Below, piece after piece: positions 8,613 to 64,000 of a stretch of 64,000 bases of DNA; within the stretch, counting starts at the first letter, position 1; every line of letters begins with the position of its first letter. The translations under genes and the position numbers were made by a program. The stretch is from contig CAWCNY010000006.1 in assembly GCA_963797095.1 (NCBI GenBank), positions 996,374 to 1,060,373 of the forward strand, written 5' to 3'. The stretch comes from an uncultured Chloroflexia bacterium. Its GTDB lineage: Bacteria; Chloroflexota; Chloroflexia; QHBQ01; JADMIH01. The notes under the pieces were generated by a model, which did not search any database, had not been told where the DNA came from, and saw only the letters and a program-made list of their open reading frames with translations.

Positions 8613-11054
8613 GTGTTTGAGTTTGATACAGCTATTTCCAGCGTTGTGGAGGTACAGGGGGAACTGCAACCACGATCTTCTGGCGAGCCAATTGAGGGAC
8701 CATTGTCGGCGGAGATGCTGGATAAGATGCAAAGGTACTGGCAGGCAGCTAACTACCTGACAGTTGGACAGATCTATTTGCAGACAAACCCTCTTTTGAG
8801 GGAGCAATTGAAGCCTGAGCATATCAAGCCACGGTTGCTGGGTCACTGGGGTACTTCGCCGGGGCTTAGCTTCATCTATGTGCATCTGAACCGGCTGATC
8901 AACGAGCATGATGCTAATGTGATCTACCTGGCGGGGCCGGGGCACGGAGGGCCTGCGATCGTCGCCAATGTGTACCTTGAGGGAACTTATTCGCAGATAT
9001 ATCAGGAGGTCACTCAGGACATGTCGGGGATGCGGCGGCTTTTCCGGCAATTCTCGACACCAGGTGGAATACCGAGCCATGTGAGCGTGACCACGCCCGG
9101 ATCAATTCACGAGGGGGGTGAGCTTGGGTATGTGCTGGCACACGCATTCGGGGCGGCGTTCGACAACCCCGACCTGATAGTGGCGGCTGTAGTGGGAGAT
9201 GGCGAGGCAGAGACCGGACCGTTGATGGCATCGTGGAGAGGGACTAGCTTCCTCAACCCGGCACGAGATGGGGCAGTGCTCCCGATCCTGCACCTGAACG
9301 GCTACAAGATCGGCGGGCCGACGGTACTAGGGCGCGACTCGGACGAGGATGTGCGTGCTACGATCGAGGGGAACGGATATGATGTGTATTTCGTGGAAGG
9401 CGATGAACCTGCCAGGATGCACCAGCAGTTCGCCGCCACCCTGGAGACGTGCTATGCACGCATTCGTGCTATCCAGGAGGACGCGCGGAAGAACGGTGTA
9501 AGCGGGCGGCCACGGTGGCCTGCTATTGTGCTGCGAACACCAAAGGGTTGGACCGGGCCGGCGGTGGTAGGTGGAATGCCGATTGAAGGAACGTTCCGAG
9601 CGCATCAGGTGCCGTTGAGCGACGTTCGGGGAGAGCCAAAGCAATTGGAGCAACTGGAAGAGTGGATGCGCAGCTACCAGCCTGATGATGTGTTTGATGT
9701 GAACGGGAAACTGATAGCAGAACTGGGCGCGCTTGCGCCGCGCGGGCTGAGACGGATGGGGTCCAATCCACACGCCAATGGAGGGAAACTGCTGGTAACA
9801 TTGCGAGTGCCTGACTTTCGCAAATACGCCCTGGAGGTGGCAAAACCTGCGACCGAGTGTGCCGAGTTGACGAGGCAACTGGGGAAGTTGATGCGGGACA
9901 TCTATGTACAAAACGCCCAGGATGCCAACTTCCGTCTCTTCTGCCCGGACGAAACCAACTCTAACCGCCTTGGCAACGTATTCGAGATAGAGAATCGCTG
10001 CTTCGTGGGCGAAACGATCTCGATTGACGATCATGTATCGCCCAATGGGCGGGTGATGGAGGTACTCAGCGAGCATCTTTGCGAAGGTTGGTTGGAGGGA
10101 TACTTGCTTACCGGGCGGCACGGCCTGTTCGCTACTTATGAAGCATTCTCGATGGTGTCGGCTTCGATGACGGTGCAGCATACAAAGTGGATGCAGGAGG
10201 CAATTGAGCTACCGTGGCGGGAGTTGATCGCGTCGTTGAATATCCTGTTGACTTCGACTTGCTGGCGGAACGACCACAACGGATTCAGCCATCAAGGGCC
10301 GGGGCTGATCGATGTGATGCTGTCGAAGCGGGGCACTGTAGCGCGCATCTACCTGCCGCCTGACGCGAATTGCCTGCTGTCGGTGGCAGATCATTGCTTC
10401 AGGAGTCGCAACTATGTGAACCTGATCGTGATCGACAAGCAGCCTCAGCTTCAGTGGCTCGACATGGACTCGGCTATAGAACACTGCGAGCGCGGGGCCT
10501 CGATATGGCATTGGGCGAGCAACGACAATGGTGAGGAGCCGGATGTGGTGCTGGCGTGCGCGGGTGATATCGTGACTATGGAGATCGTGGCGGCGGCGTG
10601 GTGGCTGCGGAAGAACATACCGGAACTGAAGGTGCGGGTGGTGAACGTTGTGGACCTGATGACGCTCTTTCCGCCTGCCTTCCACCCGCATGGTATGAAC
10701 GAAACTGACTTCGTGAATATGTTCACGGCGGATAAGGATGTAATCTTCGCTTTCCACGGGTACCAGCGGGCGATACACCAGATCATACATGGGCGGGCGA
10801 ACCCGGAACGCTTCCATGTTCGCGGATTCAACGAGCAAGGGACGACCACCACACCGTTCGATATGGTGGTGCTGAACAAGACAAGCCGGTATGACCTGGT
10901 GAACGATGTGGTGAATAACGTGCCCAAGATGCGGCAGCGCAGGCCGGAGATCAATGACATCTGCGACCAGTTGCTCGCCAGGGCAAAGGCGTATTCGCTT
11001 GAGCATCTTGAAGACCCGCCGGAGATCCGCGATTGGGTATGGACCGACGATTGA
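8613..11054 (+). CDS. xfp: Phosphoketolase (xylulose-5-P/fructose-6-P)
   Basis: [32 protein letters not shown] (ThDP), [17 protein letters not shown]. Confidence 0.96.
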
Positions 11055-34218: not shown

Positions 34219-34229
34219 GACGCAGAGGC

Positions 34230-36833
34230 GTGACCATGCCTGATGTTCGTTACCAGAACTTTGACCTGACCATCCAGAGAGATGGTGAGGATTATTCGGT
34301 GCGGGTCAATTCGCCTGCGGGGCAAGCGGTGGGGCGGTTCAGCGTGCCTTTCTCAGAGTTGGAGCTTGAGAACTTCATCTTGACCACCACGCCCGGCAGG
34401 CGAAGCGTGCGCAGGATAGATACTCCCGAGGTGGCTGCTGCCAAGAAGTTCGGGGAGCGTCTGTTTAGCTCCATATTCACAGGTGATGTCGCCGGGCGCT
34501 TCCACAGCGCATTGAATGATGCTTATCGTAGTGACGACCGCCTCAGATTGCGTCTGCGGCTGACCGATGTGCCTGAGTTGGCGGACCTGCCTTGGGAGTA
34601 CCTGTACAATCCCGCACTGAACAGATTTCTGGCCCTGGATGACGACACGGCGGTGGTGCGCTACCTGGAACTGCCTGAGAGGGTGCGGCCAGTGGCTGTG
34701 ACGCTGCCCCTCAAGGTGCTGGTGGCTATCTCGGACCCGAACGACTACCCACAACTGGATGTGGAGCGAGAATGGGCCAATCTCAATGAGGCGCTTGGCG
34801 GTCTGGAACGCGACGGTTATTTGGAGCTGGACCTTCTTGATGGCGCTACGCTCCCTTCTTTGCGGAGGCAATTGTCGGAGGAGGAGTATCACATCTTCCA
34901 CTTCATCGGGCATGGGGGATTCGACAGGCAGTCCGAAGAAGGAGTGGTTGTGCTGAAGGACGAGCAGGGGCGGGGTCGATTTGTGAGCGGGCAGCAAATG
35001 GGCTGGCTGATGCACAACCACAAGACGCTCGCCCTGGCGGTATTGAACGCGTGCGAGGGTGCGCGCGCTGATCGAACGGACGTGTTCGCGGGGACGGCGC
35101 AGAGCCTGGTGCAGCAGGGGATACCGGCTGTGATAGCGATGCAGCGCGAGATCACCGACGACGCGGCCAAGGCGTTCGCCCACGCCTTCTACATGGCGGT
35201 GGTGAGGGGACGCCCCGTGGAAGCGGCGCTGACCGAAACGCGGCTTGCTATCTTCGCGGAGGGGCATGCGTTGGAGTGGGCCACGCCTGTGCTCTATATG
35301 CGCGCTTCTGATGGCAAGGTGTTCGACCTGGATACAATCGTAGTGAGGCGCGCGGAAAAGAGAGAGGATGCGCGGCAGGAGCCTGTAACCGTAGATGAGA
35401 CGAAGGGCCAAGATAAACGGGATGTTTCGGCCAGGCAGCAGGAAGCGACGGTTCGAGAGAAGAAGGAAGAGCGGAGGGACGAGCTGGCTAAGGCGCCCGC
35501 GAAGAATGATTACGTCGCGGACAATAAGCAGCACATGGGCGAGAACCTGGCCCAGAGCGTAGACAAGATGGTGTCGGAGTACCTCGCTGAGACTGGTAAG
35601 GCAACCACGGGGAGGGCTGATGAGCCGCAGAAGCCTGCGCTGTCGAGAAAGTGGTGGGGTTTGACGGCCATCCTGGTGGGTTTGGTGGTGTTGGGGGCGG
35701 CCGGGCTATTGACCGGAATTATTTCGTTCCCTGGTGGACAGGATACGAGCGGTGAGCCTACCGCCGCGGTGGAGACGCCGACCGGTGAGGTGCCTGCTGT
35801 GGTCGATACGGAGGTGCCATCTGCTGAGAAGACAGCAATCGTGACGGAACAATTGATTTTCTCACAGACGCTGCAAGCTCCATCGAACCTACCGGAGGAG
35901 ACAGAGATTGCGGCCCTTCGTTTTTCGAGGGATTCGACATATGTGGCAGCGTGGTACAACCTCGGCAACTACATGGGCCAGTTGGATGTTTGGTCCAGGT
36001 CGTTGATGGCTGCAACCGATACCAGTGGGAACTACCAGCCTCAAGTCGAGTGGCATATCAGCGGCTATGACTGGGGCAAACCTGAGATTGCGTTCTTCCC
36101 GAAGGGGTCCAATATTCAGGATGCACGTGATTTTGCTTTCAGGAATAACGAGCAGGTCCAGATACGAAACGTAGTGGCAAAGGACTCGATCGTGACGATA
36201 GATGTGCCTGAGTTGCTCAGTGTGGACGTATCACCGGACGGCACGTTGCTTGCCACAGGGACAAGCGAGGGCAAGGCGGCATTGTGGTCAGCGGAAACCA
36301 GGCAGCTAGTGGCCGAATTGGACGGGCACAAAGGGGGTGTGGAGAGCGTGGTCTTCTCGCCATCGGGGGCGCTGCTGGCAACCACCGAGTATGGTAAGAC
36401 GCGCGTCTGGGACGGCGCAACAGGCGAGCTTAAGTATGAGCTTGCACACAACCTCGGAGAAGACCCGGCTTCCACAATTGTGGAATTCCCATCTGACAAC
36501 TCGGTGGTGGTTATTTGCTCCGGACGCGCGGAGTGTGGGTTCTGGTATATGAGCGACGGTAGTTTCTCGGATTCGCTTGACAACTCGGTGCTGGACCTGA
36601 GCGGGTTAGGGAACATGCTAGCCATAGGGTTCATGGCGGATAGACCGGTATTCGAGGTGGGATGGGAGAACGGCACCGTGCAACTGTGGGATTCATCCGG
36701 CCTAGCAGAGACATTGCAGGCCGACCCGGTGCAGACAGGGGGTGACCTAAGCGCGATGGCCCTTTCGTCAGACGGGCACGAGGCTGCCGTGGGCCTGAGC
36801 GATGGGCAAATACAGATATGGGAGATACCCTAA
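34230..36833 (+). CDS. CHAT (caspase-like) domain + single TM + WD40 repeat protein
   Basis: LPWEYL, HFIGHG and LNACEG catalytic His/Cys; TM at aa ~478-500; SPDGTLLATG, GHKGGVESVVFS, IQIWE repeats. Confidence 0.88.
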   Translation: MTMPDVRYQNFDLTIQRDGEDYSVRVNSPAGQAVGRFSVPFSELELENFILTTTPGRRSVRRIDTPEVAAAKKFGERLFSSIFTGDVAGRFHSALNDAYRSDDRLRLRLRLTDVPELADLPWEYLYNPALNRFLALDDDTAVVRYLELPERVRPVAVTLPLKVLVAISDPNDYPQLDVEREWANLNEALGGLERDGYLELDLLDGATLPSLRRQLSEEEYHIFHFIGHGGFDRQSEEGVVVLKDEQGRGRFVSGQQMGWLMHNHKTLALAVLNACEGARADRTDVFAGTAQSLVQQGIPAVIAMQREITDDAAKAFAHAFYMAVVRGRPVEAALTETRLAIFAEGHALEWATPVLYMRASDGKVFDLDTIVVRRAEKREDARQEPVTVDETKGQDKRDVSARQQEATVREKKEERRDELAKAPAKNDYVADNKQHMGENLAQSVDKMVSEYLAETGKATTGRADEPQKPALSRKWWGLTAILVGLVVLGAAGLLTGIISFPGGQDTSGEPTAAVETPTGEVPAVVDTEVPSAEKTAIVTEQLIFSQTLQAPSNLPEETEIAALRFSRDSTYVAAWYNLGNYMGQLDVWSRSLMAATDTSGNYQPQVEWHISGYDWGKPEIAFFPKGSNIQDARDFAFRNNEQVQIRNVVAKDSIVTIDVPELLSVDVSPDGTLLATGTSEGKAALWSAETRQLVAELDGHKGGVESVVFSPSGALLATTEYGKTRVWDGATGELKYELAHNLGEDPASTIVEFPSDNSVVVICSGRAECGFWYMSDGSFSDSLDNSVLDLSGLGNMLAIGFMADRPVFEVGWENGTVQLWDSSGLAETLQADPVQTGGDLSAMALSSDGHEAAVGLSDGQIQIWEIP

Positions 36834-61989: not shown

Positions 61990-63177
61990 TCACCTTGTAT
62001 TTCGCTTTCTAGTCCCCGATTTGCCGGTGGTTACGCCATCGAGCACTTCCGCAGTCTGGCGGGCGGTGCGCTCCCAACTGAAGGTCGAGGCTTGTTGTAG
62101 CGCAGCTTGGCCCAGACGTGCGGCCAATGCGGGGTCGCGTAGCAGTGACCGGAGCGCATCCGCCCACGCCCCGATGCCCATCGGATCGACCAGGATGCCC
62201 GCGTTGCCGACTACTTCGGGCAGGGCCGATGTGTTGGAGGCTACCACAGGGGTACCGCATGACATGGCTTCAAGGGCCGGGAGACCGAACCCTTCATAAA
62301 GGGAAGGATAGGCACACACACCGGCGATATTATACCACAGCGGTAGCTCGTCGTCAGGCACGCGACCTAGCCAGCGTACGCGCCCGCCCTGCTCCCGGGA
62401 GCCGAGTCCAAGACGCTCGGCGGTGGCGAATATCTCATCGTAATACCAGCCCTTGCTGCCGCCTACCACAAGAATAACATCGGACAGATCGGGGTCGTGG
62501 GCGAGTGCAGCGAAGGCGTGGAGGAGAGTAGAGATGTTCTTGCGGGGTTCGAGGGTGCCGATATGGATGATGATGCGCCCTTCTATGCCCTTCTCGTAGC
62601 GGAAATTCGACCTCTCTAGCTCGGAGATCGGGTGGAACTGTGTGCCGACGCCATTATAGACCGTGGTGACGTGCGAGGGTGGGATATGGAGGAGCTTAAT
62701 AACATCGCGCCGAGTAGTCTCGGAGACCGCAATGACCTGCCTGGCATGGCGGGCGGACCAGCCGGTCATAGCGGTGAGATAGAGGCGCTTGAGAGGGTGG
62801 AAAGCGGCAGGATAGCGAAGGAAGATCAGGTCGTGGATGGTGAGCAAAGTGGGGCAGGGAGCTATGAAGGGGCGGACATTGACCGGGCAAAAGAGGAGGT
62901 CGAGGCGAAGGCGCCCAGCGGCGAAAGGGAGGATCGTTTGCTCCCAGGCGATACGAATCGGGGCGCGCACAGTGGGGAAGCGGCTGCGAGAAAAGGCGAG
63001 ATTAGGAGGGGCCGGAAAACCGGTAGGGATTGGAGCGTTGCCGACGAAGGCGGTGAAGCGGGAGTGGGGCTGCTGAGGGGGAAGCTGGATCAGAAGCTCG
63101 TAGATGTAGCGGCTGAGACCGGCCTGGCGGTAGTTGCCGGTGAAGGCCAGCAGGTGGGCGTTGATGCCGATGTGCAT
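61990..63177 (-). CDS. Glycosyltransferase family 4 (mannosyltransferase-like)
   Basis: TIHDL, GTLEPRKN, PSLYEGFGLPALEAM. Confidence 0.9.
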   Translation of the reverse strand: MHIGINAHLLAFTGNYRQAGLSRYIYELLIQLPPQQPHSRFTAFVGNAPIPTGFPAPPNLAFSRSRFPTVRAPIRIAWEQTILPFAAGRLRLDLLFCPVNVRPFIAPCPTLLTIHDLIFLRYPAAFHPLKRLYLTAMTGWSARHARQVIAVSETTRRDVIKLLHIPPSHVTTVYNGVGTQFHPISELERSNFRYEKGIEGRIIIHIGTLEPRKNISTLLHAFAALAHDPDLSDVILVVGGSKGWYYDEIFATAERLGLGSREQGGRVRWLGRVPDDELPLWYNIAGVCAYPSLYEGFGLPALEAMSCGTPVVASNTSALPEVVGNAGILVDPMGIGAWADALRSLLRDPALAARLGQAALQQASTFSWERTARQTAEVLDGVTTGKSGTRKRNTR

Positions 63178-63578
63178 ATCGGTGATTATAACAGGCCACC
63201 CGGCTGGGTGGAAGCGCGGGAGAATGGGTCGCATGAAGCGAAGAGGAATCGCAGCACATCCACAAGCAGAGGTGAGTAGAAATCCACTACGTAATATTAC
63301 GTATTTTTGACATAACGTATACTACTTTCGGGTTAACTACTTCCTTATGTAAACTTTTCGTGATATACTGCCTCACGAAGCAAAGGCGCGCTCTTTCCTG
63401 GCAGTAGTAGTACTTTCGGGCTACAACTTTAGCGGGTATGGGTCGTGCTTTTTTGTGTCGGTTGAAAGGGGCGTAGCCATCCAAGCGGTGTATTGGAGGC
63501 AAGTTTCCGCGCCGCCGGTGGAAGAGGATAATGCGGCGGTTGGAGTTATTTTAGGCTGTTTCTGAGGAGGAGTACATC

Positions 63579-63809
63579 ATGATCAGACGCACCTTACGCT
63601 ATGCTCGCTACGCTTTGGTGGTGGGCGGCATCTTCGCCTCGTTTGCTTTGAGCGTCAATTGGAGCGCAGCCGATAGTGTGAACTGGAGCAGTGTAAACTG
63701 GAGCAGACCGGATAGTGTAAATTGGAGCAGTGTAAATTGGAGCCGCCCCGAAAGTGTGAATTGGAGCAGTGTAAACTGGAGCCGGTCTGAAAGTGTAAAC
63801 TGGAGCTAG
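63579..63809 (+). CDS. Small putatively exported peptide with 8 SVNWS repeats
   Basis: GAGGAGGAG RBS; basic N-region plus hydrophobic stretch; synonymous variation among repeats; terminator downstream. Confidence 0.82.
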   Translation: MIRRTLRYARYALVVGGIFASFALSVNWSAADSVNWSSVNWSRPDSVNWSSVNWSRPESVNWSSVNWSRSESVNWS

Positions 63810-63863
63810 GCCGCTAGCTGCACGAGAGATAAAGCACGAGTTAGCACGAGAAGGAAGATTGTA

Positions 63864-63889
63864 GAGGAGGCCTGCGGGCCTCCTATTTT
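63864..63889 (+). terminator. Intrinsic terminator after the SVNWS peptide gene
   Basis: AGGAGGCC-loop-GGCCTCCT followed by ATTTT. Confidence 0.7.
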
Positions 63890-63907
63890 CGTGGGGACAC
63901 GCCACGC

Positions 63908-63936
63908 TTGACGAGGGATGTGCTATTGCGTATAAT
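63908..63936 (+). promoter_or_regulatory. Sigma70 promoter of the tRNA
   Basis: TTGACG-17 bp-TATAAT. Confidence 0.75.
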
Positions 63937-63967
63937 ATGAGGGCGCAGGCGTGAGCGTATGATACAT

Positions 63968-64000
63968 GGGGATGTAGCTCAGTTGGGAGAGCATCACACT
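63968..64000 (+). tRNA. tRNA 5' part, probably tRNA-Ala (anticodon beyond window edge)
   Basis: GGGGATG TA GCTCAGTTGGGAGAGC acceptor strand and D-arm; G3 fits Ala identity. Confidence 0.8.

Follow-up and report, generated by a model that had tools for sequence, protein, structure and literature searches.

What purpose is served by a small gene that encodes a signal-like leader followed by eight identical copies of one pentapeptide, SVNWS? The question is raised by the last part of a 64,000-nucleotide stretch of DNA from an uncultured Chloroflexia bacterium (here called the window). Chloroflexota abound in soil, but most have never been cultured and what they do outside the cell is poorly understood; to our knowledge, peptide communication and exported multi-copy propeptides have been well worked out only in Bacillota. 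The gene and the signals that frame it are as follows.

63564..63572, plus strand: ribosome-binding site GAGGAGGAG, 6 nt 5' of the ATG, read directly
63579..63809 (stop included), plus strand: coding sequence of the SVNWS-repeat protein, 76 aa, ATG start
63579..63647, plus strand: predicted Sec-type signal peptide, residues 1-23, from sequence features, an AF2 helix and conservation
63651..63806, plus strand: eight SVNWS units with the spacers AAD, RPD, RPE and RSE, from repeat finding and unit comparison
63865..63891, plus strand: terminator-like hairpin (63865-63884) and T run, closing a monocistronic gene

Direct reading confirmed exactly the layout given by the initial annotation, a 24-residue signal-like leader and eight SVNWS units. 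The order in the 76-aa protein is the N-terminal 24 residues and then SVNWS-AAD-(SVNWS)2-RPD-(SVNWS)2-RPE-(SVNWS)2-RSE-SVNWS-stop, with a super-repeat of 13 residues (two units and a 3-residue spacer); in the gene, Tandem Repeats Finder picks out repeat periods of 15, 39 and 78. The ribosome-binding site and terminator that had been claimed for it are both present, GAGGAGGAG lying 6 nt before the ATG and the hairpin at 63865-63884 being followed by a T run. When the eight fifteen-base units are compared, only bases 3, 6 and 9 vary, which are third codon positions, and every change (AGC/AGT, GTC/GTG/GTA, AAT/AAC) is synonymous, bearing out the earlier proposal that selection acts on the units at the protein level. 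The spacer arginines are encoded by AGA, CGC and CGG. A wider tally of 199 units in 22 small ORFs with available DNA, for which the search pattern demanded intact units and four of the 22 ORFs came from unpublished genomes, shows three Ser, four Val and two Asn codons in use. All three antisense frames contain at least one stop, here and in three orthologues, and an antisense ORF of 103 aa was dismissed on that ground. The degenerate pattern VNW-x-S-VNW matches this genome 11 times in the forward direction and 0 times when reversed, and the reversed control gives 1 match in total over all 26 genomes of the genus. The SVNWS frame is not a chance ORF; it is a real, stand-alone gene that is constrained at the protein level.

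The N-terminus of the protein has four Arg within residues 3-10, a 14-residue uncharged stretch and the small residues A-S-F-A, after which, judging from these features, signal cleavage is likely. AF2 places a helix at residues 2-26, and the alignment shows this region to be kept among relatives of the same type (type i, below). A Tat signal was also considered and dismissed as unlikely because the RR pair is not conserved, being replaced by KR, TR or NR in relatives. The mature protein would be ~52 residues long, Sec-exported and, going by the model, intrinsically disordered: past the helix, AF2 predicts no strands and no regular structure, with a pLDDT of 52-58 in the repeat part (the alignments behind this and the S8 model described below are shallow, with 18 and 15 rows). 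Pfam and NCBIfam scans of the peptide returned 0 families (Pfam at E up to 1), and ESM Atlas gave no usable match to it.

A pattern search across genomes had been set as a check, and genome searches did turn up homologues, in 15 of 26 genomes of the genus, as well as S8 proteases that carry the unit in their tails. A word-indexed search of 5.8 billion proteins returned 14 small homologues (63-109 aa) and one S8 (AprX) fragment. When a homologue profile was run against 401 genomes of the class, 23 matched: the 15 genus genomes do so in a small open frame (a count that includes the unpublished genomes G013, G031 and G133), three further genus genomes, one of them unpublished, only via long S8-like frames, and five genomes outside the genus in frames of 540-583 aa with a subtilase tail at their end. 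Against 1.84 billion representatives the profile gave 78 matches, 19 of which are small proteins with a signal-like N-terminus and units. Source databases call the small proteins only "hypothetical protein", no description of the SVNWS unit or of the S8 tail was found in the literature searched for unit sequences and Chloroflexi signalling peptides, and none of the papers listed for Chloroflexi RRNPP/signalling peptides deals with Chloroflexota peptides. By sequence similarity, the SVNWS protein is thus one of a family, as yet unnamed, of small proteins that bear a signal, with relatives in the genus and in metagenomes.

The anatomy of this family was tallied over 51 sequences; two of these are unrelated hits, one is a cut entry, one a frameshifted gene, and four come from unpublished genomes. 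The pattern [VI]NW picks out 374 units. Just ahead of it stands S (354 units) or T (14); just after it comes S (143), N (111), G (73), A (21) or T (15), and position -2 is most often D (103), S (68), G (58) or A (50). Units follow one another at a distance of 5 (78 times) or 8 (107 times) residues and also at 7 and 10-14, spacers in relatives measure 2 to ~15 residues, and each protein has 3-18 units. From these tallies, [ST]VNW is the invariant element, and spacers and copy number are free. The chain ends [VI]NW-x-stop in 46 of the 51, the five others being the two unrelated hits, the cut entry, the frameshifted gene and P0089. One repeat-peptide gene (L062, G127:C3, ~9828-10400) consists of two overlapping frames, of 143 aa without a proper end and of 56 aa ending in a unit, reflecting a frameshift or a sequencing error.

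Where, then, is the same unit found outside these small proteins? This genome holds only three arrays of it, namely the SVNWS gene and the tails with which two S8 genes, out of seven, end at the C-terminus. The likeness to SVNW-type tails on Chloroflexota S8 proteases that the initial annotation had pointed to is real, even within the same genome. Its S8 tails and the SVNWS peptide have a common unit written in different codons, and the likeness therefore lies at the protein level. The SVNWS gene is not a detached remnant of a protease tail, an outcome that the initial annotation had allowed for: it has its own ATG, signal, ribosome-binding site and terminator, its units are intact, its family is diversified and its codons are unlike those of the resident tails. 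A scan of one genome per species, covering 185,579 species, gave 23 loci. In 20 of them the array closes a subtilase-like frame (in one case a 102-aa remnant), two are genes standing alone and the 23rd fell below the three-unit filter; the record titles give Chloroflexia, Anaerolineae, Ardenticatenaceae and Chloroflexota MAGs. The ten "longer" homologues all belong to S8 or AprX and reach 18 units, and source databases name the tailed proteins only "serine protease AprX". Outside SVNWS-type small proteins, uninterrupted arrays were found, at the level of sequence, only on S8 (AprX-like) subtilases that are predicted to be secreted.

Contiguous arrays are present in 15 of the 26 genus genomes; in a sample of 400 genomes from elsewhere in the phylum, only 3 have them. 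A tail array is also present in 11 of the 15 peptide-bearing genomes; four peptide-bearing genomes have no contiguous tail array, and four tail-bearing genomes have no peptide. These figures are descriptive only because kin are not independent; in addition, the genus is represented mostly by incomplete MAGs and the counts include the unpublished G013, G031 and G133, and the main conclusions stand without the unpublished genomes. Two further details of tail-bearing S8 genes were noted. In one of them (L049:8414-8580), three FSVNWQF[KR] units precede the hydrophobic signal segment in frame, and the sequence suggests that this stretch is translated because the Ser codons differ between copies (AGT in one copy, TCG in two). 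Directly downstream of another lies a canonical pentapeptide-repeat protein (L003:1788-2387, G000:C5; Pentapeptide_4, E 2e-24), a neighbour that is probably a coincidence.

How could the small protein and the proteases be connected? The anatomy described above (a small protein predicted to be exported, a short unit that does not change, spacers and a copy number that vary freely, a chain ending just past a unit, no confident fold) fits a multi-copy propeptide or a multivalent linear-motif protein. Since its unit forms S8 tails, the stand-alone protein is most likely coupled to S8 proteases, and since uninterrupted arrays were found on no non-S8 protein, the units are most likely sites at which S8 enzymes recognize or cut. 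We therefore propose, as a tentative reading that we hold well short of probable, an exported, disordered multi-unit propeptide that is coupled to tail-bearing S8 proteases and cut into short SVNW peptides by a Phr-like logic. We infer that the protein would be exported via Sec, that its functional elements would be the eight [ST]VNW-x units rather than a fold, and that these would act as recognition or cleavage sites for the tail-bearing subtilases; cleavage outside the cell would yield short peptides ending in, or containing, SVNW, and the released peptides may have some activity, as a signal or otherwise. Subtilisins prefer large hydrophobic P1 residues. The proposal ties a family of small proteins, predicted to be secreted, to one subfamily of secreted proteases through an easily synthesised pentapeptide unit, and could be tested with a synthetic peptide and one recombinant enzyme.

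The closest bacterial analogy is with the Phr-type (RRNPPA) propeptides of Bacillota and their phages. As described in PMC11343458, these propeptides measure 50-120 aa, leave the cell via Sec and are then processed by extracellular proteases; the pheromone, in 1-4 tandem copies, typically forms the C-terminal end. The SVNWS protein resembles them in being small and, by prediction, Sec-exported, in placing a short unit at its very C-terminus with repeats upstream, and in the proposed maturation by extracellular proteases. It differs in its host (Chloroflexota instead of Bacillota), in its copy number (8 here and 3-18 in the family, against 1-4) and in its surroundings, the Phr-type gene adjoining a TPR receptor gene and the type-i SVNWS loci (n=6) a GT4 gene and a tRNA. 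PMC11343458 also describes a mature Phr peptide of 5-10 aa that is re-imported by Opp, with which the C-terminal position of the SVNWS unit would be compatible. There is no sequence homology between the two, and the SVNWS protein is at most a protein that would work like the Phr family, not a member of it. Precursors of the yeast alpha-factor type and others processed by KEX2 have a signal peptide, many identical short units and variable spacers. The SVNWS protein shares this plan of a signal peptide followed by identical short units with variable spacers; unlike these eukaryotic precursors, it is bacterial, has no dibasic processing sites and is without a known receptor link.

Several observations speak against a propeptide. 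The residues that flank the units do not make up a conserved, defined cleavage site, and the eight copies exceed the 1-4 given for Phr-type propeptides in PMC11343458. No S8 gene, receptor or importer adjoins the gene, S8 tails are present in other classes in which the stand-alone peptide was not found, and the co-occurrence of tail and peptide has exceptions in both directions and is confounded by relatedness and by incomplete MAGs. A complex prediction for the S8 catalytic part (137-470) with the mature peptide (25-76), run with no controls folded, gave a score of 0.00 and a mark of 0.32, which counts neither for nor against the propeptide. The earlier idea of a precursor for an undescribed peptide signalling system survives in part: a multi-copy exported propeptide is the best single fit, and a receptor or importer linked to the gene is missing.

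An unlikely reading is that the [ST]VNW pentads are a multivalent binding tag, aromatic "stickers" that would hold the S8 enzyme on an envelope polymer or an insoluble substrate. The stand-alone protein would then be a free, multivalent version of this tag, coating those sites or competing for them. Tails and peptides are both exported, by prediction, and both have low-confidence, unstructured AF2 models; in one of this genome's own S8 proteins, tail residues 468-528 have a pLDDT of ~30 against a whole-protein mean of 66.6. The tails keep a Trp every 5 residues even past the perfect units, and multivalent linear motifs would tolerate the varying spacers and copy numbers. S8 tails are also present in other classes, where the stand-alone peptide was not found, so the tail must serve some purpose for which the peptide is not required. 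However, a general anchor would be expected on several classes of secreted enzyme, and the array was found on none but S8 (10 of 10 longer homologues; 20 of 23 loci). Nor does a tag account for the stop that almost every stand-alone protein has exactly one residue past a unit, and it is without a known ligand. Tails and stand-alone proteins have in common the pentapeptide unit, a protein predicted to be exported, low AF2 confidence and an end soon after the last Trp pentad, whereas the tails are uninterrupted arrays of 4-18 units on an enzyme with an end cap such as SDYWG-x, and the stand-alone proteins have their own signal peptide, variable spacers and a stop one residue after the unit. If the tag were true, it would name a function for an unannotated C-terminal module of S8 proteases.

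Returning to the propeptide, does the locus offer it a regulator or a receptor? The region between the gene and its neighbours contains the following.

61990..63234, minus strand: divergent GT4 glycosyltransferase, first gene of a GT4-tsaE-tsaB-rimI-tsaD block; context, outside the system
63288..63303, no strand: perfect 16-bp palindrome TACGTAATATTACGTA, candidate operator in the GT4/peptide intergenic region
63360..63369, plus strand: candidate extended -10 promoter element GTGATATACT, kept in an alignment of 4 type-i loci, of putative function
63908-63936, plus strand: promoter-like site TTGACG-17-TATAAT; context
63968-64000, plus strand: 5' part of a tRNA gene, its first 33 bases, from an Rfam scan

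The SVNWS gene and the divergent GT4 gene are 344 bp apart. Within this interval the palindrome is kept as TACGTAA-A/T-ATTACGTA in the window, L035, L036 and L058, and a direct repeat, TACTTTCGGG, occurs twice 3' of it (63323-63332 and 63411-63420); on sequence grounds, palindrome and direct repeats are candidate operator sites for a regulator. A sigma-70 scan did not report the candidate -10 element at 63360..63369 because the -35 is poor. The Rfam scan of 63000-64000 found nothing but the cut tRNA, which is incomplete, with nothing readable beyond it, because the window ends at the contig end; relatives have tRNA-Ala(GGC) at this place. Type i (this gene, and the only type in this genome) and type ii (SVNWS-SVNWN-[KR]A-x) occupy one locus, between the divergent GT4-tsaE-tsaB-rimI-tsaD block and tRNA-Ala(GGC), and the type-i loci with this GT4/tRNA synteny are six (window, L035, L036, L058, L061, L070). 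The locus next to tRNA-Ala is variable. In G043 (L059, G043:C30, 6197-19900), ~10 kb separates the peptide from the GT4 block, with an esterase and an alpha-amylase/CBM48 gene among the ORFs, and an Eco57I-like methylase lies on the other side of the peptide. At two other loci (L036:7761-11681 and L058:3561-7630) a CHAT protease domain fused to a family-5 solute-binding (peptide-binding) domain is encoded ~3 kb from the peptide, preceded in L036 by a Trypco1 gene. The genome studied here has a CHAT homologue, 67% identical across the first 372 residues, at window ~34227-35339, ~29 kb upstream of the peptide; at that distance, and with the HD-domain neighbour not found, a CHAT/SBP_bac_5/Trypco1 association was dismissed for this genome.

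A different situation was seen with type iii (SVNWG-SVNWN-KA-x), which adjoins a STAND(NB-ARC)-TPR-LuxR gene in four other genomes (L063, L065, L066 and L071, all domain-scanned); L067 has the same layout, by position only. One can imagine from this a Chloroflexota pheromone system in which tail-bearing subtilases cut the Sec-exported propeptide and in which propeptide and protease tails release the same SVNW peptide, as a signal that also reports the amount of protease secreted, with the STAND-TPR-LuxR protein beside the sister-genome paralogue as a possible receptor, and we regard this as doubtful. Were it true, it would mean an RRNPPA-like logic outside Bacillota and a new type of receptor. 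An adjoining STAND-TPR-LuxR gene is a feature of the type-iii paralogue only, in those other genomes. Of the S8 proteases, radical SAM enzymes and sensors that the earlier annotation wanted sought in the neighbourhood, none was found among the scanned neighbours of this gene; the STAND-TPR-LuxR gene lies beside a paralogue elsewhere. These regulators are greatly expanded in the genome studied here, with at least 35 paralogues in 6 Mb (e.g. G000:C2:967075-969306). A crude script found 0 convincing secreted small ORFs downstream of the 35 paralogues in this genome, the G006 regulator, which is 67% identical, has no peptide beside it, and a general pairing of STAND-TPR-LuxR genes with secreted small ORFs was dismissed on these results.

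Another way to connect peptide and protease, improbable in our view, is that the stand-alone protein is a decoy or inhibitor, which would mimic the protease tails and tune extracellular proteolysis as a competitive pseudo-substrate. Exclusivity to S8 and the common unit favour it on the same basis as they do a propeptide. In addition, the fifth residue of the peptide unit partly tracks that of the resident tail, S with S and N with N: the four genomes that have both an SVNWS tail and a peptide (G000, G025, G088 and G006, which also has an SVNWG tail) all have peptides of the SVNWS type, and SVNWN units were seen in peptides only in genomes with SVNWN tails (G043, G049, G100, G094). This match, however, follows clades and is broken in G019, where an SVNWN tail meets an SVNWG peptide, and the protein, predicted to be disordered, has no known inhibitor fold or reactive-site loop.

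To the same improbable degree, the units may build a folded repeat, be it a beta-helix like that of pentapeptide repeats, some other solenoid, an amyloid or a layer with surface activity. Pentapeptide repeat proteins (PF00805/PF13599) have the consensus A(D/N)LXX, and their unbroken five-residue period forms a right-handed quadrilateral beta-helix. The SVNWS array shares with them a five-residue period, and V-N-W-S-S, with Trp central, resembles and fits that consensus; moreover, long S8 tails (14-15 units) match Pentapeptide_4 weakly (E 0.003-0.012). Those matches reach 16-18 bits, far under the 38-bit cut-off, and the peptide itself has no Pfam match at threshold or at E up to 1. The central Trp also sets it apart, its spacers break the period, and those spacers, of 3 residues here and up to ~15 in relatives, are something that a regular solenoid cannot absorb. 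AF2 predicts neither strands nor a beta-helix, at low confidence and from the shallow alignments of 18 and 15 rows. The beta-solenoid or amyloid structure suggested earlier is thus weakened by unit spacings of 5, 7, 8 and 10-14 and by AF2 models without regular structure.

That the protein is the precursor of a modified peptide, a RiPP or glycopeptide with its maturases encoded elsewhere, seems very improbable. The case for it is the invariant short core in many copies, with Trp and Asn, and the N-x-S sequon in every unit of this gene. The sequon is missing from the SVNWN, SVNWG and SVNWA units of the family, and the divergent GT4 gene, although it lies next to the peptide, is found throughout the order whether or not the peptide accompanies it, with an orthologue in 40 of 40 genomes, a count that includes the unpublished G097. 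When GT4 loci were read with 1.5-kb flanks (n=30), the repeat peptide adjoined seven, one of them from an unpublished genome, and was absent from the other 23; GT4 as a dedicated maturase was dismissed, being conserved independently of the peptide. These results weaken the glycopeptide that had been suggested from the sequon. The darobactin-type RiPP raised alongside it loses ground too, the N-terminus being a predicted Sec-type signal instead of a leader peptide. Among the neighbours scanned at 15 loci, a scan that covered 68 of 140 listed neighbouring ORFs, there was no maturase of the radical-SAM, ATP-grasp, cyclodehydratase or dedicated-transferase kind. The SVNWS gene has as its neighbours the housekeeping-like GT4 block and the tRNA, with neither an S8 gene nor a receptor or peptide importer beside it.

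Finally, that the repeat-bearing ORF is unexpressed or functionless is barely credible, for although the gene is absent from 11 of 26 genus genomes, many of them incomplete, and the G127 copy appears frameshifted, variation is synonymous only, the signal peptide, ribosome-binding site, terminator and upstream elements are conserved, and the family has diversified around invariant units. A look-up of sequencing runs gave no RNA run and one soil metagenome, which contained 0.07 of the sampled words.

A motif resembling the unit was seen in giant proteins (P0016, of 2809 aa, P0017, P0018, P0019-P0021 and P0024). No Pfam model covers their repeat, and we treat the resemblance of G[VI]NWxD[LI] to the SVNW unit as a likeness of motif only. 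In these proteins the 13-residue repeat G-[VI]-N-W-x-D-[LI]-x-x-L-S-x-x recurs dozens of times, giving up to 107 Trp, and some of them also have Laminin_G_3 or Ig_Rha78A_N domains.
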